DNA of 64,000 bases, from sequence record NC_031047.1. One strand, given 5' to 3'. The position numbers and the translations under genes are program-made. Of this stretch, positions 13,066 to 47,464 are shown piece by piece. The notes under the pieces are model-generated. The model was given only the letters and a program-made list of their open reading frames with translations. It searched no databases and was not told the DNA's origin. This stretch comes from Escherichia phage HY03. How positions within the stretch are numbered: the stretch's first letter is position 1; every line of letters begins with the position of its first letter.

Positions 13066-13073
13066 TAATTCAA

Positions 13074-13097
13074 GGACTCCTTCGGGAGTCCTTTTTT
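13074..13097 (+). terminator. Rho-independent terminator (ggactcc-UUCG-ggagtcc plus T6)
   Basis: Seen in sequence just after soc. Confidence 0.6.
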
Positions 13098-23087: not shown

Positions 23088-23105
23088 AAAGGCCTTCGGG
23101 CCTTT
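23088..23105 (+). terminator. Hairpin aaaggcc-UUCG-ggccttt (terminator-like)
   Basis: Seen in sequence; T-run interrupted. Confidence 0.4.
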
Positions 23106-25504: not shown

Positions 25505-26017
25505 TTCTTCTAGCATTGATATGAAAAAATATAAATCGCAGAACAATGTCCGTCGTTCTATTAAATCCTCTTCAATGAACTATGCGAATGTCGCTATTAT
25601 GACAGACGCAGATCACGATGGATAGCCTTCGGGCTATCTATAGAAATACCTCATAATTAAGAGATTATTGGATTAGGTTCTATTTATCCTTCTCTGCTCG
25701 GATTTTTTAGTAATTGGCCAGAATTGTTTGAGCAAGGACGAATTCGTTTTGTCAAAACTCCTGTAATCATCGCTCAGGTCGGTAAAAAACAAGAATGGTT
25801 TTATACAGTCGCTGAATATGAGAGTGCCAAAGATGCTCTACCTAAACATAGCATCCGTTATATTAAAGGACTTGGTTCTTTGGAAAAATCTGAATATCGT
25901 GAGATGATTCAAAACCCAGTATATGATGTTGTTAAACTTCCTGAGAATTGGAAAGAGCTTTTTGAAATGCTCATGGGAGATAATGCTGACCTTCGTAAAG
26001 AATGGATGAGCCAGTAG
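25485..26017 (+). CDS. 60: Topoisomerase II subunit gp60, translated with a 50-nt ribosomal bypass (codons 1-46 at 25485..25622, resumes 25673..26017)
   Basis: MKFVKIDSS ... DADHDG-GGA-UAG, hairpin, landing GGA, then LGSIYPSLLGFFSNWPELFEQGRIRF in frame; matches the established T4 gene 60 bypass. Confidence 0.85.
25623..25672 (+). other. Gene 60 coding gap (translational bypass element: UAG stop, UUCG-loop hairpin, landing GGA)
   Basis: Sequence tagccttcgggctatctatagaaatacctcataattaagagattattgga seen directly. Confidence 0.85.
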
Positions 26018-28474: not shown

Positions 28475-29413
28475 ATGTACAATATTAAATGCCTGACCAA
28501 AAACGAACAAGCTGAAATTGTTAAACTGTATTCAAGCGGTAATTATACCCAACAGGAATTGGCTGATTGGCAAGGTGTATCGGTTGACACAATCCGTCGT
28601 GTTTTGAAAAATGCTGAAGAAGCTAAACACCCTAAAGTTACTATTAGCGGTGACATTACAGTTGAAGTTAAGAGTGATGTAGCTATTGCTCCAGTTGCTA
28701 AATCTGACATTATTTGGAATGCATCTAAAAAATTCATTTCAATTACTGTTGACGGTGTAACTTATAACGCAACTCCTAATACTCATTCAAACTTCCAGGA
28801 AATTCTTAATCTGCTTGTAGCGGATAAGCTGGAAGAAGCAGCACAAAAAATTAATGTTCGTCGCGCCGTTGAAAAATATATTTCCGGCGATGTTCGAATT
28901 GAAGGTGGAAGCTTGTTCTATCAAAATATCGAATTGCGGTCTGGTTTGGTTGATCGTATTCTTGACTCGATGGAAAAAGGCGAAAACTTTGAATTTTATT
29001 TTCCGTTCTTGGAAAATCTGCTGGAAAACCCAAGCCAAAAAGCGGTATCTCGACTCTTTGATTTCTTGGTAGCAAACGATATTGAAATTACAGAAGATGG
29101 TTACTTCTATGCTTGGAAAGTAGTTCGCAGCAATTACTTTGACTGTCACTCAAACACCTTTGATAACAGTCCTGGTAAAGTAGTTAAAATGCCACGTACT
29201 CGTGTGAATGACGATGATACACAAACTTGTTCTCGTGGTCTGCATGTGTGTTCTAAATCTTATATTCGTCACTTTGGCAGTTCAACCAGTCGAGTTGTAA
29301 AAGTTAAAGTACATCCGCGTGATGTAGTATCAATTCCGATTGATTACAACGATGCTAAAATGCGTACCTGCCAATACGAAGTAGTTGAAGACGTTACTGA
29401 ACAATTTAGATAA
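28475..29413 (+). CDS. rIIB: rIIB protein
   Basis: 312 aa directly downstream of rIIA. Confidence 0.85.
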   Translation: MYNIKCLTKNEQAEIVKLYSSGNYTQQELADWQGVSVDTIRRVLKNAEEAKHPKVTISGDITVEVKSDVAIAPVAKSDIIWNASKKFISITVDGVTYNATPNTHSNFQEILNLLVADKLEEAAQKINVRRAVEKYISGDVRIEGGSLFYQNIELRSGLVDRILDSMEKGENFEFYFPFLENLLENPSQKAVSRLFDFLVANDIEITEDGYFYAWKVVRSNYFDCHSNTFDNSPGKVVKMPRTRVNDDDTQTCSRGLHVCSKSYIRHFGSSTSRVVKVKVHPRDVVSIPIDYNDAKMRTCQYEVVEDVTEQFR

Positions 29414-29445
29414 GGGCTTCGGCCCTTATCACATTAAGGAAAATT

Positions 29446-29640: not shown

Positions 29641-29644
29641 AGTA

Positions 29645-29667
29645 AAGGGCTTCGGCCCTTTTGTTTT
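29645..29667 (+). terminator. Rho-independent terminator (aagggc-UUCG-gccctt plus T-rich)
   Basis: Seen in sequence. Confidence 0.55.
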
Positions 29668-32033: not shown

Positions 32034-32113
32034 TGAGCAATTTCCATAACGAACATGTGATGCAGTTCTATCGTAACAATCTTAAAACTAAAGGCGTCTT
32101 CGGACGCCAGTGA
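32033..32113 (+). CDS. stp: Stp peptide (26 aa), activator of the host anticodon nuclease in T4
   Basis: [26 protein letters not shown] read from sequence; ATG overlaps ndd stop. Confidence 0.7.
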
Positions 32114-36627: not shown

Positions 36628-36900
36628 ATGAATAAAAACATTGATACAGTTCGTGAAATTATTACTGTTGCATCTATTTTGATTAAATTTTCCAGAGAAG
36701 ATATTGTTGAGAATCGTGCTATTTTTATTGCATTTCTGAATGAGATTGGAGTAACGCATGAAGGTAGAAAGTTAAATCAGAATTCATTCCGTAAAATTGT
36801 TTCTGAATTAACCCAAGAAGATAAGAAAACCCTCATCGACGAATTCAACGAGGGTTTTGAGGGTGTATATCGATATCTAGAGATGTATACGAACAAATAA
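36628..36900 (+). CDS. asiA: Anti-sigma-70 factor AsiA
   Basis: 90 aa; MNKNIDTVREIITVASILIKFSREDIVENRA matches my recollection of T4 AsiA. Confidence 0.85.
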   Translation: MNKNIDTVREIITVASILIKFSREDIVENRAIFIAFLNEIGVTHEGRKLNQNSFRKIVSELTQEDKKTLIDEFNEGFEGVYRYLEMYTNK

Positions 36901-37557
36901 TTATTTAGCCCTTCCTAATATTCTGGCCGCCTGAGCACATATTGATTCAAGGCGGTCATTACTTATATGATCATTTCTATACCAGTACATGGTTATTGTT
37001 CCAGCATAGATATTATCCAAATTGAAATATGGACAACTGTACATGTAGTTTATTTCGGGAGTAGGCTTTTTAGTTGGTAAAAAAGCAAATTTTGAGTCGG
37101 AATAATAATGACGTCCATTTAAATGAACTGCATATTCATCCATAGTTTTATCAACAGGATATCCTCCAAGTGATTTTTCGCTTATTGTTGAAGGTAATTT
37201 TCCTTCATATGCTATAATATCAACAAAATAGTTTAAGTTTTTAGGGCGGAAAGAATACACCGCACTAAAGTCTGCCTCAGATGATATGTGAACTATCTGG
37301 AGTTGTTCCAGGGCGACAGATTCAAAGCGTGCATTTCTTTCCTTTTCAATAATTTCACTGTATGTTTCATACTTTGATTGCTTATAGTACTCAAAGAAAC
37401 TATCTCCCCTATACCAAACAATCGCCATCATAAATAAAAGAATTACGACAGCTACTCGGGAAGCAAGAACCTTCCCGGTAGCGTTATCTTTGAACAAGCG
37501 ATCTAGAATACCCAACAGAATATCAGAGGGCGAAAATGATATTCTAGGTGCTGCCAT
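36901..37557 (-). CDS. t: Holin T
   Basis: 218 aa; MAAPRISFSPSDIL... single N-terminal TM plus large periplasmic domain. Confidence 0.85.
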   Translation of the reverse strand: MAAPRISFSPSDILLGILDRLFKDNATGKVLASRVAVVILLFMMAIVWYRGDSFFEYYKQSKYETYSEIIEKERNARFESVALEQLQIVHISSEADFSAVYSFRPKNLNYFVDIIAYEGKLPSTISEKSLGGYPVDKTMDEYAVHLNGRHYYSDSKFAFLPTKKPTPEINYMYSCPYFNLDNIYAGTITMYWYRNDHISNDRLESICAQAARILGRAK

Positions 37558-37587
37558 AGACCCTCCTTTTAAGGATATTTATTCAAA

Positions 37588-38382
37588 TTATACTCTTGGA
37601 CCATATATTGCTCCAACATTTTGCCATGTTGGAGCTGATCCTATAACAGCATATCCGGCAGCGCCACCAGCTCCAACTTTTAGAACTTTACCGCCATCAT
37701 GCCAGGCATTTTGTCCATTTGCGCCAGCATCACCACCCTGGCCAGAGTGAGCATTACCATAATTATAACCACCTCCTGGGCCATCATAAGAAGCTGCGCC
37801 ACCGGAATAACCTCCGCCTCCTCCTGGGCCAAATGGTCTTCCTCCACCGCCACCAATATCTTGCCACCTTGCGCCAGAGTGAGGACGATAAGCGATACCG
37901 CCACCACCGCCACCACCGCCACAAATTACTCCACCATTATTAATTCTTAATCGACCACCAATGTCATTTTGAATACAATGTCCACCCTGTTGACCATTAC
38001 CATCTCCACCAGAATGAGTCCATCCACCTTGTCCACCTCTGCCCCACATATGAGCTCCACCGCTAATATTCAACTGAACATATTCATTTGGTGTATCTCC
38101 ATACATGAAGAATAAAGGAACATCTCTAGAATATGATACCAAATTTCCTGTGATATTAAACACTATAGGTGCACTACCTGCCTCAAAACATCTATCTCGG
38201 AACCATTGACCATTAAAGTTATGGTCTGCTCCAAGTGTATGAATTACTTCAACAGATCGACCTATCATATTACTCATCCAAAACGGAATTCCCATTCTCA
38301 ATCTCTGCGCGGCACCACCCATCCAAGGGTCTCCAGTTTGTACCCTCGCAGACGATCCTACCCACGGTCCTGTTACTGCCAT
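37588..38382 (-). CDS. 38: Tail fibre adhesin gp38, T2-type with glycine-rich motifs
   Basis: ORF track 37588..38394; ATG at 38382 after GGAGG; poly-Gly runs (GGGGGGG) separating variable segments. Confidence 0.8.
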
Positions 38383-38413
38383 ATAAACCTCCAAGGGGCC
38401 GAAGCCCCTCTTA

Positions 38414-41400
38414 TTATTTTAACAACGATTTAACTAATGCTTTAAGTTCTTCGATTTCTGATTTAAGTTCTGCAATTTCTGCAGTATGCTCATTGATTGC
38501 AGCTGTATTTAAACCAATTACACCGTTATAGTTCAAACGAAGTAAAGCTTCACCATCCGGGTCACCTTCAACTAATTCAGGCAAAATAGCTTGAACTTCT
38601 TGAGCTATCAAACCAGCGTTAGGTTCCCATTTCTGATTACCTTCTTCATCTGTTCCACGTTTCTGCATATAAGTGTAACCGTTAATTTTAGAAAGCTTCT
38701 GAGAAGCATTTTCAAATTTAACGAGGTCTTTTTTAACGCGAATATCAGAACGGACATAAACATCACGGACAAACGTTGAATAGCTGTCATTCGCCTGGAC
38801 TAGATGACCGTGAGAAATAATCGCTTTATCAACTTCGGTCCACAAACCACCATGACTTCCCCATAGTCCTGAGTGTTCTTGATACATCGTACCCCATGAT
38901 GCAATATGCTGTCCGTTAGCAAACATGTTAATACGACCATCACCACCATGAACTAATCCGGTATCATTATCACCAATAACAAGACATGGTCCAGTCCATG
39001 CAGGGTCACCTCCACCAGCTGATAATCTTGCTCCAGTTTGAACCATGTTAGGAGCATACAGAACTCCATCGTGGTGGAATTCATATATAGCTTGCGGGTC
39101 AGAACCATTTTCCTGGTTACCTACACGAATAATACCTTGTGCCCATTTGTTAGTGATACGGCGCATACCAAAATCTACACCAGATACGTATCCTTCATTC
39201 GTAATAACAGATTTTCCTTTGATAATTGGATAATAACTATCATTACCGACGTAGCCAAAATCCACAAATATCGGAGCTTCTTGACGCCATTGACTTCCCC
39301 AATCGCCAGCTTGGTGCGCAGTCCAGTATGCTCCATTTATATAAAGACGATCCCTATTAAAATTAAAAGTAGCAGACCCTTGAGGAGATAAAGCAATTTC
39401 TCCGACCTCATTAATGTTAACACCGCTGTTAGTTTGGAAACTGTAAAATGATATAGTATTATCGGCGCCGCCGTTACCAACATACCAGTTATCAACGCCT
39501 GCTTTTTGTCCTTTCATATAACCGGATTCGCTTGCAGCACTATTAATAACAATAACATCCGAGTTGGCATTAAGAGTTAAACGGCCTGTCATTGTATCGC
39601 CTTCTTTCGAAACACGAGTCGCAATAGCATCGCGAATATTTGTAATGTCTCCTGCTGCAGTAAACGTTTTCCAGATATCAGACCAGATGTTACCATTGCG
39701 AGCAATAGTAGCTTCGCCGCCGCCGACAGAAACGTTATCTGGGAAGTTAACAGTACCGTCTTGATTAAAACGAGACGTATGGCCTTGTGAACCATCTTCT
39801 TTCAGATGATGAATAACGAATGTACCAGAATTAATTTCAGTACCTAAAGACCAAACTGCTTTACCATTTAAGAATTTCTGTTTAACAATAGGATAATATT
39901 TGCTTACAGCATCATCATCAATTTCCTGGAAAATAGGAGCCGCTTGAGCATATTGAACGGCATAACCTCCAGCCCCAGCTCCATGACCAGCAAATTTAAT
40001 ATAGCCATTTGCTGCGAACGTATTGTAACTTGATTGTAAATCTGGAATAGTAACTTTACCAGTATCTAAAGCCATACTAAACGGGCGAAGTGGACCGATA
40101 TCGCCGTGTTTACCTTCACCGTAAGCAGTTGGAATAATATGAAGACTGCCTTCTGAACGTCTAAAAATGGCTCCATAATCTGCATTCCAAATGCGAAGAC
40201 CATTTACAGCATTTGTCGCGATTTCACCGGCTGCGCTGATTGTACCGTCAAATGTAGCATTTTTTACTACTGTCAAGTTTTCATTAACAATCTGGGTGCC
40301 ATTTATAACCGATTCGACTTTACCTGCAGTTGTTCGTTGAATATAACTCATCCAGCTAGTTGCATCAGAAATTTCCATGACATTTTTGCGATTACCTTCG
40401 CTAGGATTAATAAATGTATTACCCCACACAGAAATTGTCATGTTATCCACAGAACTACTACCTGTTGTGTTACCTCTAAACATCAGCGTAGAAGAATTAT
40501 TACGACCATCAATATTAACAGAACCACCAATAACGTCAATATTACCAGGAGTAACTAACAAACCGCCGTGAGTATTAATGTTTGTGACACCTTTACCGCG
40601 GAAATAGTGATGATATCTACCGCCTTGATAATATCCCAAAAGAGTCTGACCATCTCCAAACGCGTTATTATCATGATATGTAACAACAGTAGCGAGAGCA
40701 TAGTTTTCAGTAGGAGGAGTAGTTAAATCGGTTCCATTGGTAGAATATCCAGCTACAAATTTTCTTAGGCTAGTTGTTTCGCTAGGGCTAAATAAAAATG
40801 TTTTCGTTCCATTATTGACGCTGAAATAATATCCATCCTGGTGCCATTTAAATCCAGTATCATTATCCCCTAAAGCAATACTAGATGGTCCTAGTATTGA
40901 ATAATCTTTATTGCCAGGTGTTAAACCGATAGAAATTGAGTGACTCGATTTAATTCCGCCGCTCCATGTAAATGACCAAAGATAAGCGTCTAGCCCATCT
41001 CCGCTGTACCAAGTTATTCCATCATTATCTTTAACTTCATGGAAAATGCCAGAACCGACTGCATTACGCATGACACGGAGATGATTAATAGCAGTAGTGC
41101 TTTCAGACAGTGGAACATTATCTGCCATCGAATAAATGTCATAATCACCTGTAGATTTATTATTAGTAATGACTTTGTTGGTCAAAATCTGAGGAGTTGA
41201 CATAGATTTCCATGCTGATACTTCAGGTGAAGTAAATAGGCCACTACCTGAAAATGCATAAGTGCTTTCGCTACCAGCGGCGTAGTCTTGAACCCTGATA
41301 TTAAGTACTTGTGTAGTTAAACCGTCATTAGCAGGAGAAAAAATAATACCGCGTTCACGGTCGGCGGAATCATGAAAACGAACGTGTGCCGTTCCTGAAC

Positions 41401-41743
41401 TTTTTGTAATAAGTTCTCCACCCTCAGTCATAATCTGCCCGGCGGCAATAATATCGCGAGTTACTCGAGCAATACCAGTTAAATTAAAATTACCTGTCTG
41501 AGTGAAAGTGCCATTTAAAGTATAATCACCAGTTTGATTATAGTTTCCTTTATGAATAACATTTCCGTCAATACTACCGCCCTTAGCAAAACCCAGATCA
41601 ATGATATTTCCTTGGTCATCTTTAGTAAAAAGTACGCGGTCTTTTAAATTTATAGCCAATTCACCTTCGGCTAATACTGAAGCGGCAGGACGTGCTCCTG
41701 CGGTTTTGCTTCTTTTAAATTGTATTTGTTTTAAAGTAGCCAT
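38414..41743 (-). CDS. 37: Long tail fibre distal subunit gp37
   Basis: 1109 aa; N-terminus [13 protein letters not shown]; C-terminal SDIRVKKDL ... coiled-coil tail. Confidence 0.9.
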
Positions 41744-41751
41744 AAGTCCTC

Positions 41752-42408
41752 TTAATAATAGCCGAAATCTTGAACAGAATCCTTAATAACAATTTGATCA
41801 AATCGTGGAACATGTGAGGGTTGAGATGCAGGATTCTGTGAAAAAAGGTTTGGCGCAGTTAAATTTCCTGTCATAGTATCTCCAGAGCGTAATACTCTAG
41901 AGTTTGCGTTTGCTGTAACAATATTTATTGCTCCATCAACATAATCTTTCCGTGTAAGGTCATAATTATTTACTGGTGATAATGAAGTTGCGCGTATTTG
42001 TGATGCCTCAATTACACCCTTTGAGCTAATATCTCCATTTCGCGTGTTAATTACTACAGTTCTACCCGCTGAACCCTGTGATGATTTAAAACCAATACCA
42101 TACCACGAAACAATATCCATATTTGTAGTATCATACGTGGCATTATCACCAGGACCAGCAAAAATACCATTGTCACCTGACCCTGCACCAGGAACAGTCA
42201 TTCCTTTATTAAAAATTACTTTATTTAAATATGTACCACCATTAGCTTTAGAAACGAAATCGTTATCAGTTGCCTGTGGTTTATTATATTCTGAATATAT
42301 TTTAAATGATTTATAGAGTACATCGTCACCGGCTGGATTCAATGGAAAATTTCCTTGATGCCAAATGACAGAGCCTCCAGTTGTTGAACCTACTTTTAAA
42401 TCAGCCAT
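41752..42408 (-). CDS. 36: Long tail fibre subunit gp36
   Basis: 218 aa; MADLKVGSTTGGSVIWHQGNF. Confidence 0.85.
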   Translation of the reverse strand: MADLKVGSTTGGSVIWHQGNFPLNPAGDDVLYKSFKIYSEYNKPQATDNDFVSKANGGTYLNKVIFNKGMTVPGAGSGDNGIFAGPGDNATYDTTNMDIVSWYGIGFKSSQGSAGRTVVINTRNGDISSKGVIEASQIRATSLSPVNNYDLTRKDYVDGAINIVTANANSRVLRSGDTMTGNLTAPNLFSQNPASQPSHVPRFDQIVIKDSVQDFGYY

Positions 42409-42470: not shown

Positions 42471-43586
42471 TTAAACTTCTCTAAATTCTTGTCCAAACAC
42501 TTTACCAGTTTTAGACGATGCTTGCGTAGGAAGTACCATTATATCCGGAGGTGAAGCAGATTCACAGACATAATTAACTCGAATACCATTGACGCCAAAC
42601 TCAGCAGGTTTTGAAATTCCGCCATTTCTTGATACTTCAGAAAAGCTTAAATTTCTCATGCCGCCTTGACCAGCTTGAGCAGTTCTTTGTGCATATATCG
42701 TAAATCCTACTGCATTTTCAGGAACAACTACATAGTCTTCCTTTAATTCCCATGACTCAGCTTGTCCAGTAAACTCAGCATGTGTTGAAGAAATATATCC
42801 ATTCGATTCATCATAAAAACGGATAGATATATTTGTAGTTCCAAGCGCAAGTAAATCGGCATCAGCATATAACTGTGCTTTAAGATAAAGAACATCGCCA
42901 GGAATTAAATTATAATCAGATAATTTACTTATCGCGGATGAAGTTGGTAAACGCGCAATTTCGTTATTAGTTCCACCAACCGCTGACATAAACTGCTCAA
43001 CGCTTTCATATGTTCTTCTTGGAAACCCGGTAGCTCCTACATCTTCTAAACTGTCAAATACAACATCCAAAATAGTTTGATAATCATCTGTGCTTTTTCT
43101 ATTACTCAGTTTAACATGCTCTAATGCGATAGCTCTTTTAGAAGAAGTATAAAAAGCAGCATATGATACGTCGAATCTTGACAATATAGAATCAGATGGA
43201 AAAGCAGACGTTCCTGCTCCCCTTAACCAAGATACTACTTCAGGAGGAAAATTAACCTTTCCGCTAGTTAATATAGCAACAAGTCTATTGCTTGAAATAG
43301 AATTCATGAAACTAACAAAAGCAGCTGATGTAGTATCATTTGAAGTCGAAAAAGCATATGACTTACTATCAACTAATGCTCCGGTGGAAGGGTCAAAAAC
43401 TCTTAAATGAAGTCCTGCGCTAAATGTTTGACTTCCGACAGGATTATCCTGAAATTTAACGTATGGTCCTGCTGTAGAAAGCGGGCAAGAACCCGCTATG
43501 CTTATTTTATATCTTACTGAATTGCTTTCCGATAAAAATGGCGTTTGGACATATCCTTGTCCAAACTCTGCCATAAATTTTTCCAT
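42471..43586 (-). CDS. 35: Long tail fibre hinge subunit gp35
   Basis: 371 aa; position between 34 and 36. Confidence 0.85.
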   Translation of the reverse strand: MEKFMAEFGQGYVQTPFLSESNSVRYKISIAGSCPLSTAGPYVKFQDNPVGSQTFSAGLHLRVFDPSTGALVDSKSYAFSTSNDTTSAAFVSFMNSISSNRLVAILTSGKVNFPPEVVSWLRGAGTSAFPSDSILSRFDVSYAAFYTSSKRAIALEHVKLSNRKSTDDYQTILDVVFDSLEDVGATGFPRRTYESVEQFMSAVGGTNNEIARLPTSSAISKLSDYNLIPGDVLYLKAQLYADADLLALGTTNISIRFYDESNGYISSTHAEFTGQAESWELKEDYVVVPENAVGFTIYAQRTAQAGQGGMRNLSFSEVSRNGGISKPAEFGVNGIRVNYVCESASPPDIMVLPTQASSKTGKVFGQEFREV

Positions 43587-43594
43587 AATACCTC

Positions 43595-46500
43595 TTATTC
43601 AACCCATTCAAATTTAACCGTTTTATTCACTGGGTCAGGAATAATGCGAACATTACCAATTCGTAAGAAATCACGAATAGTAAGATTACCCATTATAGCA
43701 TTATCAGATGGTAAAGCACCGATATCAGATGGTTGTGGAGGGTTACCTCCATCAAATACCTGAACAAAACTTGACCAAGAGTTTTTGGTTTTCTGCCATG
43801 TACGTGTCCAGCGAGTGGTACGCGCTTCTGGCGTCGTTGGATAAGTAATCCAATCTTGGTAAAGCGAATCAAGTGTATTACCAAACTGAGTCAATGTACC
43901 AGGAGATTTAACCTCTTCACCACGTTCTAAGTATGGAAGTCCAGTCACTTCATTAGTTTTTTCAACCATTTTAAAATAACCCGGGAACTGGTTATAAGTG
44001 GCTGAATCGTTAATATCAATTGACCAGAATCCTACAGTTTCAGATGTTGGTGCACGGGTGTATAAATCAGATGTTTTAGTACCCTGAGAACGAATTCTCG
44101 AGTTAACAGTCAAACCGCCTGAATTTATAGTAGCACCTTTGGCAATGATTAAGCTTTCACCAATTGTAACCTGACCAGATTGATTATTAATTGATAATGG
44201 ACGTAATCCATTAAATCCACCAGTCTGATCGCCAGATGCAGTAAGCATAAAATAGGTGTTAGCAGCATCATTACGAATAAAGAATCCATAATCACCGTTT
44301 ATTGCTCTAAAAGCATTCGACGATTTACTGATAAATTCGCCATTAGCAGTAACTGAACTACCGAATGTTGCAACGCCATTCGCATTCAATGTTCCTGAAG
44401 CATTCACATTTATCGGTGTTACTGTACCATTGATATTAAATGTTATATTACCAGCTTTATTGCGCTGAGAATAAAAGTGACTAGACGTTTCATCACTAAC
44501 TTCAAATACGGTAGAACGTGTTGTGTCCGATTCACCACTGAATTGATTTCCCCACACTCTGACTGTCATCGTTTGAGCCGGATTCGTTCCAGTTTGAGGT
44601 CCTTTCTCAAAAATCAGACGAGTTGCTGTTCCAGTATTAGAAATGGTTAGTGTACTATTTGCTGAAACTGATCCACCGAACGTAGCAGTACTAGATGATA
44701 CAAGAGGGGCACTCAGATTCGTTTGTTGGGTTAAGGTTAGTGAACCATTAACCGTTTGTGCAATATCCCTACGAATGAACTGAGATGAATCTAGACCATC
44801 CAGTAAATTACTATCTACAGCTTTTGCTTTTAACGGCAAATAATTTGCTAATACACGGTTTAATTCATATGGTGATACTGCATAGCTATTTTTCTCATAC
44901 AGTTCTAAATCTTGGGTAGAACCGACTGTATCATTACCAACGAATGTAATTGAACCAGATGAAGTTTTAACAAAGCCCCTTATCGCAGTAGTCGCTGCCC
45001 AAGTAGGTTCACTCTGCGCAATCCATTTTAAATTTTTTGGAGATACAGCAGTATTTGCTGATGTTCCAGTCACAGTTTCAGACTGAGTTGCAACTTTAAT
45101 AACACCTTCTTGCGCTTCAGTAGATTTAGTACCTAAAAGCTTTTTAGGAGTTATTAAAACATTATCTAATGTTCCTGCAGCAGCTTCGACCTGTGTAGCT
45201 ACACGAAGTGTACCACGTTGTGTCTCATTTGCTTCAAGAATATTAAGGGTATAATGGTCCCAGAGAGTTCCTGATTCAACTAATCCAGATAGAGCAACAA
45301 CAGAAGTACGATCAGTACTGTTAAATCTAGTTTTAATTTTTAATGGTGTAGAGATACGAGTATCGTCGACGCCTGCGTCGAATTCAACTTGCGTAGCAAT
45401 TTCAGCTATACCACTTAAACTTTCAGTTGCTCTACGGTCATTTAAAGTTTTAGGAGTGACTGCACGAGTATAATCAGTTCCTGTATTAACTTCACTTTGC
45501 GTAGCAATTTCAATTAAACCAATTCTTGCATCAGTTGATGTCTTTTTATGTAACGTTTCTGGCGTTACAACCGCATTTGCCCATCCTTCTTGGCTTTGTC
45601 CAGCAATTACTTCACTTTCAACTGCTAAAATTACTGCACCTTGTTGCGTTGGAGTAGCTTTATACTGATCCAGTGCTTTAGGCGAAACAACTAAATTATT
45701 AGTATTTTTATTATAAACATTTGTACCATTTAATTCACGACTAGAGGCTGGAGTAGCACCTGCAGTAGATACAAAAGTTACAATACCAGATAATGACTCA
45801 GAACCTTGACGAGCTTGAAGCTTTTTAGGAGTGATGATTGTAGTATCATCAGTACCTGTATTAGTTTCCTGCTGCGTAGCAATTTCAGCAACACCTCTGC
45901 GAGTTTCTGTAGCAGTTCTTTCATTCAGCTTTTTAGGAGTGATGATAAGGTCATCAGCAAAAGAGAATGTAGTGTTCTGATTTACTTGAGCAGTAGTTGC
46001 TATTCTTGCGATACCTCTACGAGTTTCTGTAGCAGTACGGTTAGCTAATGTTTCTGGAGTAATTGCTAATTCTTTTTGTGGAGAATTTTCTAAATCGACG
46101 TTAGCTTGGGCTTGTGTAGCTAAAGCAATTACGCCTAATCTTGCTCTAGTAGAATCATTTAAAGAGTCTACTCTTTCAACTGTTGGAACGTTTTGTTGTA
46201 CAACCCAATATTTTCCATCAGAATCTTCTATATAAGCAAGCTGTAAAACTGGAACATAATTAGTTTCGCCGTTAAAAACTAATTCTTGAACAGTCACCCA
46301 TTCAGCTTCAGGTGGATATTCTGAGCGTTTTGGGAATTGCAGCAATTGAACTGAAGAAGCAATTTTATCTTCACCGGCAGCTTTGATTTTAACTGTTTGG
46401 CCTTTTCTCATGTAATTCATGGAAATTTTAACAGTATCACCAACAGAAATATCAGTCGGAAGCTGAAGTTCAATTGTCTGAGCTGTTCCGTTATTCGCAC

Positions 46501-47464
46501 CAAATACCATAACTTCTTCATTTGGACGAATATTAGAATTAGTCGTTATAATGCGTAAACGCGCTTTACTATCCCCGTCAAACAATCTCCACAATTTCTC
46601 ATTATCATCAAACATTAAGAAACCGTCAATCGTTGTACGGCCTTCAATGGAATGAGTTCCAACTTCTTGTATTGAAGTCGTTTCATCGTATGTAGTAACA
46701 ATTGTATGATAAAGCGGATTTAGTTTATCTAAATCGACGAAATTAATAATATCGCCATGATTAGCAAATCTTGGAAGTTTAACATTAATTGGTGCAGCAG
46801 AAGTAAATCTACGTACGATAAAATCGTTTGATTGCGCTTGATAGAGACTCGCAGGCGTTACAACTACAGCTTCTCTACTATAATCAGCGACATACATTTG
46901 CCACAGACGATTACTAAAAATTAAAACTAGCTGTGACTTTGGATGAGTCATTAGTACTGAACGTACCTGTTCACCTCTAAAGTTTACAATACTTTGCACT
47001 GGAGCTACAATTAAAACTTGGTTAACACCAGGTTTTCCTCCAATGTCTTGGAGAACGATAGTATCTCCATCAATTGGGGAAGATGGTAAAGTAAATGTAA
47101 TGTCATTACCAGCTGCAGTATCAACTGAAATTGATTCGCCTGACTTTAATTGATAAGGTCCTGATGAAACAGTTGTCCAATTAGCATCAGTACGTAATGC
47201 TCTCCAACGTACGCTATTAAAAGCTCCTGCTGGTTTTGGAATATCATTTATAGCAGCCCAAAAGCGGTTATCATAAATGATTACAAAATCTTTTAAATAT
47301 CCACGAGTTGGATCATATTGTTGAACTGTGTTTTCTTGAATTAAGTAATCAACGTTAACACCGTCAGTTCCTACGGTACGATCAGCTAAAGCTACGTTGA
47401 TTATTTTATCGCCACCTGCGTCCAGACCGTCTTCTGCTCTGAACTTTCTTTTAATCTCGGCCAT
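43595..47464 (-). CDS. 34: Long tail fibre proximal subunit gp34
   Basis: 1289 aa; MAEIKRKFRAEDGLDAGGDKIINVALADR. Confidence 0.9.
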   Translation of the reverse strand: MAEIKRKFRAEDGLDAGGDKIINVALADRTVGTDGVNVDYLIQENTVQQYDPTRGYLKDFVIIYDNRFWAAINDIPKPAGAFNSVRWRALRTDANWTTVSSGPYQLKSGESISVDTAAGNDITFTLPSSPIDGDTIVLQDIGGKPGVNQVLIVAPVQSIVNFRGEQVRSVLMTHPKSQLVLIFSNRLWQMYVADYSREAVVVTPASLYQAQSNDFIVRRFTSAAPINVKLPRFANHGDIINFVDLDKLNPLYHTIVTTYDETTSIQEVGTHSIEGRTTIDGFLMFDDNEKLWRLFDGDSKARLRIITTNSNIRPNEEVMVFGANNGTAQTIELQLPTDISVGDTVKISMNYMRKGQTVKIKAAGEDKIASSVQLLQFPKRSEYPPEAEWVTVQELVFNGETNYVPVLQLAYIEDSDGKYWVVQQNVPTVERVDSLNDSTRARLGVIALATQAQANVDLENSPQKELAITPETLANRTATETRRGIARIATTAQVNQNTTFSFADDLIITPKKLNERTATETRRGVAEIATQQETNTGTDDTTIITPKKLQARQGSESLSGIVTFVSTAGATPASSRELNGTNVYNKNTNNLVVSPKALDQYKATPTQQGAVILAVESEVIAGQSQEGWANAVVTPETLHKKTSTDARIGLIEIATQSEVNTGTDYTRAVTPKTLNDRRATESLSGIAEIATQVEFDAGVDDTRISTPLKIKTRFNSTDRTSVVALSGLVESGTLWDHYTLNILEANETQRGTLRVATQVEAAAGTLDNVLITPKKLLGTKSTEAQEGVIKVATQSETVTGTSANTAVSPKNLKWIAQSEPTWAATTAIRGFVKTSSGSITFVGNDTVGSTQDLELYEKNSYAVSPYELNRVLANYLPLKAKAVDSNLLDGLDSSQFIRRDIAQTVNGSLTLTQQTNLSAPLVSSSTATFGGSVSANSTLTISNTGTATRLIFEKGPQTGTNPAQTMTVRVWGNQFSGESDTTRSTVFEVSDETSSHFYSQRNKAGNITFNINGTVTPINVNASGTLNANGVATFGSSVTANGEFISKSSNAFRAINGDYGFFIRNDAANTYFMLTASGDQTGGFNGLRPLSINNQSGQVTIGESLIIAKGATINSGGLTVNSRIRSQGTKTSDLYTRAPTSETVGFWSIDINDSATYNQFPGYFKMVEKTNEVTGLPYLERGEEVKSPGTLTQFGNTLDSLYQDWITYPTTPEARTTRWTRTWQKTKNSWSSFVQVFDGGNPPQPSDIGALPSDNAIMGNLTIRDFLRIGNVRIIPDPVNKTVKFEWVE

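Follow-up and report, generated by a model that had tools for sequence, protein, structure and literature searches.

The T2-type long tail fibre distal tip of Escherichia phage HY03: gp38 adhesin, gp37 chaperone domain, intercistronic hairpin and a predicted receptor

Genes and features at the locus

The 64,000 nucleotides of Escherichia phage HY03 that we analyzed (NC_031047.1; hereafter, the window) include, on the minus strand, the two genes that encode the distal end of the long tail fibre. Gene 37 is followed by an intergenic gap of 31 nt that contains an RNA hairpin, then by gene 38 and, directly downstream, by the holin gene t. The features that enter the analysis, all on the minus strand, are listed below in the direction of transcription.

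38414-41743, minus: gene 37, whole gene, 1109 aa
38750..41743, minus: gp37 minus its chaperone domain (mature part), aa 1-998, making up the shaft of the distal half-fibre; its last residues are the predicted docking surface for gp38 (Pfam, homology)
38417..38749, minus: C-terminal intramolecular chaperone (IMC) domain of gp37, aa 999-1109, 111 aa (Pfam PF13884 Peptidase_S74)
38393..38410, minus: C(UUCG)G tetraloop hairpin, GAGGGGC-UUCG-GCCCCUU, loop at 38403-38400 (folding, covariation)
38388..38392, minus: Shine-Dalgarno sequence of gene 38, GGAGG, 2 nt past the hairpin and 5 nt ahead of the ATG (direct reading; conserved in relatives)
37588..38382, minus: gene 38, encoding the T2/S16-type receptor-recognising adhesin gp38, 264 aa plus stop (Pfam, PDB, AF2)
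38263..38382, minus: N-terminal attachment domain of gp38, aa 1-40, with Trp7, Trp20 and Trp35, of PP01/wV7-like subtype (Pfam Gp38_N, aa 1-40)
37591..38046, minus: receptor-binding region of gp38, aa 113-264, in which hypervariable loops are interspersed with glycine-rich motifs; RB32/ELT1-type (identities)
37897..37920, minus: run of eight glycines (G8), aa 155-162, central among the glycine-rich motifs (aligns with S16 151-GGGGGGGG-158)
36901..37557, minus: holin gene t (Pfam Phage_holin_T, 1.8e-116)

The placement of gene 38 straight after gene 37 and before t is common to T2, T6, PP01, RB32, and S16, and the order 37-38-t was the same in all relatives that we examined. An earlier note on this DNA had given gp38 a length of 264 aa, and reading the minus strand from the ATG (37588-38382) bears this out. 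A TTG start in the open reading frame list (38394), four codons upstream of the ATG, spans the Shine-Dalgarno sequence and is used by no homolog; we rejected it. Also rejected were plus-strand frames within gene 38 (e.g., 37490-37750 and 37699-37950), which are rich in Pro, Thr, Ala, His, and Arg and are mirror images of a GGN-rich coding strand.

The receptor-binding module as a whole is already known. Both proteins are annotated in RefSeq and are exact, full-length matches to products of Escherichia phage HY03, with gp38 corresponding to AKJ72878.1 / YP_009284209.1 ("tail fiber protein; host specificity") and gp37 to AKJ72879.1 / YP_009284210.1 ("long tail fiber protein distal subunit"). Likewise, T2-type adhesins, IMC processing of gp37, and CUUCGG hairpins have each been established before. 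What our analysis adds is a receptor prediction (OmpA), the mosaic structure of the tip with respect to PP01 and RB32, and the placement of the hairpin as one of nine in the window. GenBank also has the name "putative distal long tail fiber assembly catalyst", a misnomer in the T4 style.

The gp38 adhesin and the gp37 tail

We hold with high confidence that the HY03 module is a T2-type distal tip, made up of a gp38 adhesin, a self-cleaving gp37, and an intercistronic hairpin, and working by the mechanism that we propose below. The assignment of gp38 starts from two Pfam families, PF05268 GP38 (1.8e-68, 231.1 bits) and PF21721 Gp38_N (8.6e-21, 74.1 bits), each with a cut-off of 25; like the 47.7 bits of the gp37 Peptidase_S74 match, these scores exceed the curated cut-offs and are hence not due to chance. 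A search of NCBIfam with gp38 and gp37 gave zero matches. Among solved structures, gp38 matched the binding domain of PP01 gp38 (9V85, 1.8e-73) and S16 gp38 (6F45_D, 9.5e-50), and no others. Its AF2 model (pLDDT 84.9) resembled the same two structures (TM 0.72-0.85 and E 4e-26 for 9V85; TM 0.77-0.82 for 6F45_D), beyond which the fold search returned nothing at E<1. The predicted fold is a beta-helix with a polyglycine-II sandwich. At the N terminus, W7, W20, and W35 were invariant in all 11 adhesins that we aligned; in a larger set of 23, W7 and W20 were invariant and W35 nearly so (at least 90%). They correspond to the three tryptophan "prongs" of S16 gp38 (PMC6851490).

The tail of gp37 carries the signature of a self-cleaving chaperone. 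Residues 999-1058 of 1109 match Peptidase_S74 (47.7 bits; cut-off 22), and the protein also matches Pfam Gp34_trimer and gp37_trimer. The ten letters that the earlier note singled out lie at aa 998-1007 and include an S-D-x-R-x-K motif, with the codon for Ser999 at 38749-38747 and Lys1004 five residues further on; all 12 T2-type gp37 tails that we aligned keep the S, D, R, and K of this motif unchanged. The HY03 sequence DVYVR^SDIRVKK aligns with the autocleavage site of S16, DLNVS^SDRRIKK, for which both the cut and a 113-residue IMC have been published (PMC7917993). By this alignment, HY03 gp37 is predicted to be cleaved between Arg998 and Ser999, with the release of 111 residues. Proteolytic processing is also on record for gp37 of T2 and T6 (PMC3157838, citing Drexler 1986). 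The C-terminal 190 aa match S16 gp37 (6F45_A) at 1.7e-41, and a profile of the tail reaches the ICA of MYRF (7DC3, 1.3e-10), a tail fibre (8JOV, 4.3e-8), and the GA-1 neck appendage (3GUD, 1.4e-3). In the last ~30 residues (a stretch of 28 letters), a/d heptad spacing can be made out by eye, and a poor single-sequence AF2 model of the tail (pLDDT 52.9) draws one long C-terminal helix, the only part with moderate confidence. The chaperone-like motif that the earlier note had read from the letters was upheld, and a coiled-coil ending fits the sequence; the note's estimate of roughly 130 aa gives way to 111 aa counted from Ser999.

The gp37-gp38 tip complex of phage S16 (PDB 6F45) is built in the same way, sharing with HY03 the IMC autocleavage site (...S^SDRRIKK), the three-Trp domain, the beta-helix, and the polyglycine-II sandwich with its G8 helix (PMC6851490; PMC7917993). 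The two phages are 50% identical in gp38 and 47% identical in the gp37 tail, and they differ in the residue that precedes the cleavage serine, which is Arg in HY03 and Ser in S16. More distantly, the Peptidase_S74 IMC domains of the K1F endosialidase, the T5 L-shaped fibre, the GA-1 neck appendage, and the MYRF ICA share with HY03 gp37 the Ser/Lys dyad, placement at the C terminus of a fibre trimer, and a helical ending. In T2-type fibres, however, what is exposed when the IMC is removed is not simply the receptor-binding tip but the site at which another protein, the adhesin, docks.

An argument could be made for an arrangement like that of T4, in which gp38 serves as an assembly chaperone only and is absent from virions, while an intact gp37 C terminus binds the receptor. 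HY03 has the same gene order, 37-38-t, and the same intergenic hairpin as T4. Yet gp38 bears no similarity to T4 gp38 (BLASTP E 0.73), which itself fits no Pfam family at E <= 0.01, the adhesin models included, and HY03 gp38 instead matches solved fibre-tip adhesins. Furthermore, T4 gp37 contains Collar and Phage_fiber repeats and has no S74 domain, while HY03 gp37, homologous to T4 gp37 across aa 1-646, diverges beyond that point and ends in the S74 domain that is common to gp37 of T2, T6, and S16. These observations leave the T4-type arrangement exceedingly improbable, and they agree with the original reading of gp38 as a T2/T6-type adhesin and not a T4 chaperone. No result of the analysis spoke against the assignment of the module to the T2 type.

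Under the T2-type reading, assembly may proceed as follows. Trimerization of gp37 would be aided by its own C-terminal IMC domain (aa 999-1109), after which the Ser999/Lys1004 dyad would cut the Arg998-Ser999 bond. The 111 residues beyond the cut would leave, and the docking surface would be laid bare. A single gp38 monomer would insert its three-helix N-terminal domain (Trp7, Trp20, and Trp35) into the trimeric end of gp37 and so become part of the virion. Five hypervariable loops, held on its polyglycine-II scaffold, would then face an outer-membrane protein, making gp38 the determinant of the primary receptor.

Mosaic structure of the tip and the predicted receptor

Comparison of the parts shows that the HY03 tip is a mosaic, in which a PP01-like gp37 tip and gp38 N terminus are joined to an RB32-like binding domain. 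PP01 resembles HY03 in having a gp37 of 1109 aa, with 87% identity over its C-terminal 160 aa, in an identical intergenic region, in the gp38 N terminus (34/40), and in the beta-helix core (67/72). The resemblance to PP01, whose receptor is OmpC (PMC12892980), ends at the hypervariable loops (82/155). The pattern for RB32 is different: both its attachment domain at the gp38 N terminus and its gp37 tip resemble T6 (22/42 identity to HY03 in the attachment domain; ~57% at the DNA level), not PP01 as in HY03. The subtype of the gp38 N terminus tracks that of the gp37 tip, a pairing that matches the lock-and-key rule published for these two parts (PMC3157838).

The receptor-binding region of gp38 is built on glycine. 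The residue makes up 26.5% of the protein and 36% of aa 110-264, and the GC content of the region is 50.7%, compared with 35.3% for the window. Runs of seven or more glycines, as the earlier note had it, describe only the G8 run (155-162); the other runs are shorter, namely, G5 (177-181), G5 (187-191), and G3 (203-205). In S16, residues 151-158 align with G8 and form helix 3 of the polyglycine sandwich (PMC6851490). When adhesins are aligned, the glycine positions stay unchanged, and it is the stretches separating them that differ.

It is in these variable segments that HY03 resembles adhesins with an experimentally assigned receptor. Over aa 113-264, gp38 is identical to ELT1 at 152/152 positions, to RB32 and wV7 at 150/152, to AV119 at 144/152, and to FL08 at 143/152; identity is lower to PP01 (82/155), T6 (90/158), and T2 (71/156). 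The characteristic long first loop (12 letters) is the same in HY03, in RB32, and in the "type 1" adhesins of AV119 and FL08. RB32 uses OmpA together with LPS (PMC3157838), and both AV119 and FL08 use OmpA (PMC12032242). Given a binding domain that agrees with RB32 at 150/152 positions and with AV119 at 144/152, we predict that HY03 gp38 recognizes OmpA, with some dependence on LPS. The loop difference between HY03 and RB32, R172K, falls at a position that is K, N, or R across adhesins of the group (R in HY03, K in RB32, N in AV119 and FL08), and variants with K or N use OmpA. By analogy with these near-identical published adhesins (PMC3157838; PMC12032242), the suggestion that host range is likely set by gp38 appears well founded.

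A different receptor for the same module is unlikely, though the chance is not negligible. OmpC, which PP01 and S16 use, would be one candidate, and the O157-phage relatives wV7 and KIT03 might hint at it; Tsx, FadL, or OmpF would be others. The PP01-like gp38 N terminus and gp37 tip are in keeping with this alternative, and single loop substitutions are able to switch receptors, as with Q206L in a hypervariable loop, which changes OmpF to OmpW (bioRxiv 10.64898/2026.04.02.716166). Our literature search found no published receptor for HY03 itself. Still, swap experiments map specificity to the C-terminal segment of gp38 (PMC3157838), and it is precisely this part, aa 113-264, that departs from PP01 and nearly coincides with the OmpA-dependent RB32 and AV119. 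Not all OmpA binders look alike, since the loops of M1 and Mi, the OmpA-binding comparators that surfaced in the homolog search (K3 and Ox2 adhesins were absent from its results), are unlike those of HY03; OmpA binders therefore comprise more than one loop type. For OmpA as the predicted receptor, the practical value lies in a specific, testable claim about HY03, that of a "type 1" broad-range adhesin. More generally, the tip offers a clean example of cassette mosaicism, combining a PP01-type docking pair with an RB32-type binding domain, which could be useful for host-range engineering.

The intercistronic hairpin

Nine intercistronic CUUCGG hairpins lie within the window, among them the one that separates gene 37 from gene 38. 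The 37/38 hairpin folds at -13.0 kcal/mol (z = -2.76), accounts for 83% of the ensemble, and was equaled by 1 of 200 shuffles. Since the 18-nt hairpin alone is significant and its 91-nt context is not (z = -0.01), there is no larger RNA structure. The hairpin occurs at the equivalent position in T2, T4, T6/RB32, PP01, and S16, where S16 has another stem and loop (GAGCC-UACG-GGCUC) that still pairs. It was also found in 19 of 20 IMG/VR loci with ATG-GC as the first letters of gene 38; the remaining one, L028, has no intergenic gap. Five of the seven stem pairs were changed on both sides with 92.9% of cells paired, against at most 70% in slid controls, and the covariation score was reached by 0 of 500 shuffles, in an alignment hand-trimmed around the loop, which favors the structure. 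A search of Rfam (E <= 1) identified no family at the hairpin and two chance-level matches elsewhere in the sequence searched.

These properties point to a stable RNA structure of the classic T4 kind. The intercistronic hairpins of T4 (Tuerk et al. 1988, as summarised in PMC4371310) share with the HY03 copy the C(UUCG)G loop and closing pair, a G+C-rich stem, the intergenic location, and the sense orientation. The HY03 copy does not differ from them in kind, and the 37/38 junction of T4 itself contains such a hairpin. The conserved hairpin that had been noted here is real, but it is not specific to the T2-type module: all T-evens, including T4, have it where gene 37 ends. Its putative function is most likely that of a barrier to mRNA decay and a folding insulator that frees the adjacent ribosome-binding site of gene 38.

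Another explanation is that the hairpin is a terminator, either attenuating transcription on the sense strand, with lower output of gene 38 than of gene 37, or stopping early-direction read-through from asiA on the opposite strand. A consensus scan called a terminator-like site, on the plus strand only (38394-38409, then CTTATTATTT); the same hairpin is annotated as a "putative transcriptional terminator" in phage WFK; and a distant locus (L030) has a classic hairpin and U-run ahead of gene 38. On the sense strand of HY03, however, the stem is followed by UU and then by the Shine-Dalgarno sequence GGAGG, without the U run of a canonical intrinsic terminator, while the truly terminator-like hairpin between genes 35 and 36 is followed by UUUUUCUU. 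As judged by eye, the T-richness of the plus strand is not kept in T4 or T2, and it consists mostly of stop and lysine codons. The hairpin is not a strong terminator, and we regard the termination reading as rather doubtful. Genes 36, 37, 38, and probably t are transcribed on the minus strand, beginning at the late promoter TATAAATA (42439-42432). This promoter lies upstream of gene 36 only, with no further exact copy of TATAAATA between it and t, including the 37/38 gap.

A more speculative role, to which we give little credence, is that the hairpin tunes the output ratio of genes 37 and 38. The ratio in question could be three gp37 chains per gp38 in T2-type phages, or catalytic amounts of chaperone in T4, and it could be set by partial termination or by differential mRNA decay upstream versus downstream of the hairpin. 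Because the flanking DNA is conserved across subtypes, the hairpin might perhaps also mark a preferred recombination boundary for adhesin cassettes, an idea that we put at the same low level. All T-even phages examined have retained the hairpin in this position, regardless of the kind of gene 38 that follows.

Proteins of the fibre tip

The window belongs to a Tequatrovirus; of the records in the phage collection, JEP6 comes closest (96.5% over 16 kb). The ORF list and the sequence place the late tail-fibre genes on the minus strand. In the fibre region, the Pfam scan covered only gp37, gp38, and the product of t; genes 34, 35, 36, and asiA are named from their order and length relative to T4 and T2.

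43595-47464, minus strand: gene 34
42471-43586, minus strand: gene 35
41752-42408, minus strand: gene 36
38414-41743, minus strand: gene 37 (1109 aa)
37588-38382, minus strand: gene 38 (264 aa counted from ATG)
36901-37557, minus strand: holin gene t
36628-36900, plus strand: asiA, convergent

By exact look-up, gp38 is identical to AKJ72878.1 of Escherichia phage HY03 (RefSeq name, "tail fiber protein; host specificity") and gp37 to AKJ72879.1 ("long tail fiber protein distal subunit"). The fibre-tip module is textbook T2-type biology that is already known and annotated for HY03, and the observation and interpretation of the earlier note, taken together, were essentially right.

That gp38 is an adhesin of the T2/S16 type and not the T4 chaperone, as had been proposed, is borne out by several lines of evidence. 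It matches the Pfam families GP38 (1.8e-68) and Gp38_N (8.6e-21), and its only two PDB matches are 9V85, the receptor-binding domain of PP01 gp38 (1.8e-73), and 6F45_D, the gp38 of S16 (9.5e-50). With 23 homologs as input, AlphaFold2 gave a model (pLDDT 84.9) that retrieved the same two entries (TM 0.72-0.85), with no other entry at E < 1 in that structure search. Comparison with the T4 gp38 chaperone revealed no similarity (E 0.73); T4 gp38 itself fits no Pfam family at E <= 0.01, the adhesin models included. Glycine makes up 26.5% of gp38 and 36% of aa 110-264. The segmented glycine-rich architecture is real, but the description of runs of seven or more holds for G8 (155-162) alone, the others being G5 (177-181), G5 (187-191), and G3 (203-205). 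Furthermore, Trp7, Trp20, and Trp35 are invariant among 11 adhesins, and in a wider set (n = 23) W7 and W20 remain so and W35 nearly so. In S16, the same three tryptophans dock gp38 onto the gp37 trimer (PMC6851490).

Opposite gene 38, several plus-strand ORFs of 46 to 86 aa (37490-38115) encode Pro/Thr/Ala/His/Arg-rich peptides. We rejected them as artefacts that mirror the GGN-rich strand coding for glycine, where GC is 50.7% vs 35.3% for the window.

In gp37, the chaperone-like domain with the SD-x-R-x-K motif was found as described, although the stretch that starts at Ser999 counts 111 residues to the C-terminus, vs the roughly 130 noted earlier. The motif segment spans aa 998-1007 (Ser999 codon, 38749-38747; Lys1004 five residues on), and Pfam Peptidase_S74 ("chaperone of endosialidase") covers aa 999-1058, scoring 47.7 bits where the cut-off is 22. 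A single-sequence structure model of the domain was of low quality (pLDDT 52.9). The same family occupies the equivalent position in T2, T6, and S16, whereas T4 gp37 carries Collar and Phage_fiber repeats in its place, and its homology to HY03 gp37 is confined to aa 1-646. The motif residues S, D, R, and K do not vary across 12 aligned T2-type gp37 tails, and a profile of this alignment matches the MYRF intramolecular chaperone 7DC3 (1.3e-10), 8JOV, a tail fibre (4.3e-8), and 3GUD, the chaperone domain of the GA-1 neck appendage (1.4e-3). S16 gp37 is cleaved at DLNVS^SDRRIKK, releasing 113 residues (PMC7917993). Because HY03 DVYVR^SDIRVKK aligns with this site, a cut is predicted between Arg998 and Ser999. 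T2 and T6 gp37 have been known since 1986 to be proteolytically processed before gp38 caps them (PMC3157838, citing Drexler et al.). In the IMG/VR genome L017 (IMGVR_UViG_2974741249_000001), the gene 37 frame is broken in the chaperone-domain region, at a GAAACGCTGGAACTGACG stretch about 490 nt before gene 38; the tail is otherwise near-identical, and the break reflects a frameshift or else an error in sequencing.

Mosaic structure and receptor prediction

In a DNA identity scan, the final ~400 nt of gene 37, the gap between the genes, and the initial ~130 nt of gene 38 resemble PP01/ELT1 (90% or more) and match RB32 at only ~57%. Gene 38 turns RB32-like (88-100%) at about 38250 and stays so up to its stop, and PP01 identity is down to 48-62% past about 38080. 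Two recombination boundaries fall within gene 38:

about 38260-38230, minus strand: RB32 identity, ~60% before, climbs to 87-97% as the conserved beta-helix core begins
about 38080, minus strand: PP01 identity goes down from 95% to 55% at the onset of the variable loops

The gp38 attachment domain thus moves together with the gp37 tip, the lock-and-key pairing described in PMC3157838, and exchange of the binding domain has taken place through the conserved beta-helix segment.

In a segment-wise comparison, the receptor-binding region (aa 113-264) is identical to that of ELT1 (152/152) and nearly so to those of RB32 and wV7 (150/152), AV119 (144/152), and FL08 (143/152). Identities are 82/155 with PP01 (OmpC), 90/158 with T6 (Tsx), and 71/156 with T2. 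RB32 requires OmpA and is affected by LPS composition, and its gp38 C-terminal segment, when moved, carries receptor specificity along (PMC3157838). AV119 and FL08 have "type 1" broad-range adhesins that are OmpA dependent (PMC12032242). Because of this near-identity to OmpA-using phages, we consider OmpA the probable primary receptor of HY03 gp38, with good confidence, bearing in mind that one loop substitution can switch receptor (bioRxiv 10.64898/2026.04.02.716166). At loop position 172, HY03 has R where RB32 has K and AV119 has N. OmpA is used by M1 and FL18 as well, yet their loops are unlike those of HY03; OmpA binders are therefore not one sequence class.

Intercistronic hairpins and transcription

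The 31-nt gap between genes 37 and 38 reads TAA-GAGGGGC-UUCG-GCCCCUU-GGAGG-UUUAU-AUG. Gene 37 is closed by two consecutive in-frame TAA codons (38416-38411, minus strand); the second, part of an A-rich run before the hairpin, is common to PP01, ELT1, FL08, WFK, and AV119. The window has nine C(UUCG)G hairpins whose stems measure 6-10 bp; each lies in a gap between ORFs and has the sense orientation of its neighbouring genes:

6037-6056, plus strand
13072-13093, plus strand
23088-23105, plus strand
25618-25641, plus strand
29409-29430, plus strand
29644-29661, plus strand
32093-32108, plus strand
42467-42446, minus strand
38410-38393, minus strand: 37/38 hairpin (7 bp, UUCG loop, Shine-Dalgarno 2 nt later)

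With stems of at least 5 bp there are 14, vs 3.5 expected from shuffles (maximum 9 in 200). They are the classic T4 intercistronic CUUCGG hairpins (PMC4371310).

The conserved hairpin claimed between genes 37 and 38 was recovered, with covariation. It occurs at the equivalent position in T2, T4, PP01, wV7, AV119, T6/RB32 (UUU loop), and S16 (UACG loop), and in 19 of 20 IMG/VR loci whose gene 38 starts ATG-GC; the exception, L028, is without an intergenic gap. Stems vary (GGGGC/GCCCC, GGGCC/GGCCC, GAGCC/GGCUC, AGAGGGC/GCCCUCU). In a comparison of ten distinct versions with a tetraloop, pairing holds in 92.9% of cells and both sides are altered in 5/7 pairs, in an alignment hand-trimmed around the loop, which favours structure. 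None of 500 shuffles reached the covariation score, and sliding the partner lowered pairing to <=70%. Folded alone, the hairpin has -13.0 kcal/mol (z -2.76); no Rfam family matches it. Only two U follow the stem before the ribosome-binding site, which argues for a stable intercistronic element, probably a decay barrier or folding insulator, and makes a terminator at this place unlikely.

Elsewhere, the junction differs. In L030 (IMGVR_UViG_2974573495_000001), a distant relative, 646 nt separate the genes; this insert holds a sigma-70-like TTGACA...TATAAT together with a small ORF and ends in a classic hairpin and U-run terminator. In L034, another distant relative, gene 37 runs directly up to gene 38 without a hairpin.

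The fibre operon contains only one exact late promoter, TATAAATA, at 42439-42432 (minus strand) before gene 36. Given this sole promoter, translation of gene 38 most likely uses a 36-37-38 transcript. In the gene 35/36 gap (42473-42409, minus strand), a hairpin with a U-run, which resembles a genuine terminator, precedes the promoter: GAGGGAGCC-UUCG-GGUUCCCUU leads into UUUUUCUU, and the promoter comes next, an arrangement that looks like a terminator-promoter pair starting this late transcript. In the gene 38/t gap, AATAAATA (37583-37576, minus strand) has one mismatch to the late-promoter consensus, and the t start codon (37557) follows 18 nt downstream. At the corresponding place in T4, an exact TATAAATA overlaps the gene 38 stop. 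Finally, a 14-bp palindromic hairpin with a T-rich tail (36858-36826, minus strand), in the 3' end of convergent asiA and 43 nt downstream of t, may terminate the late fibre/holin transcript.
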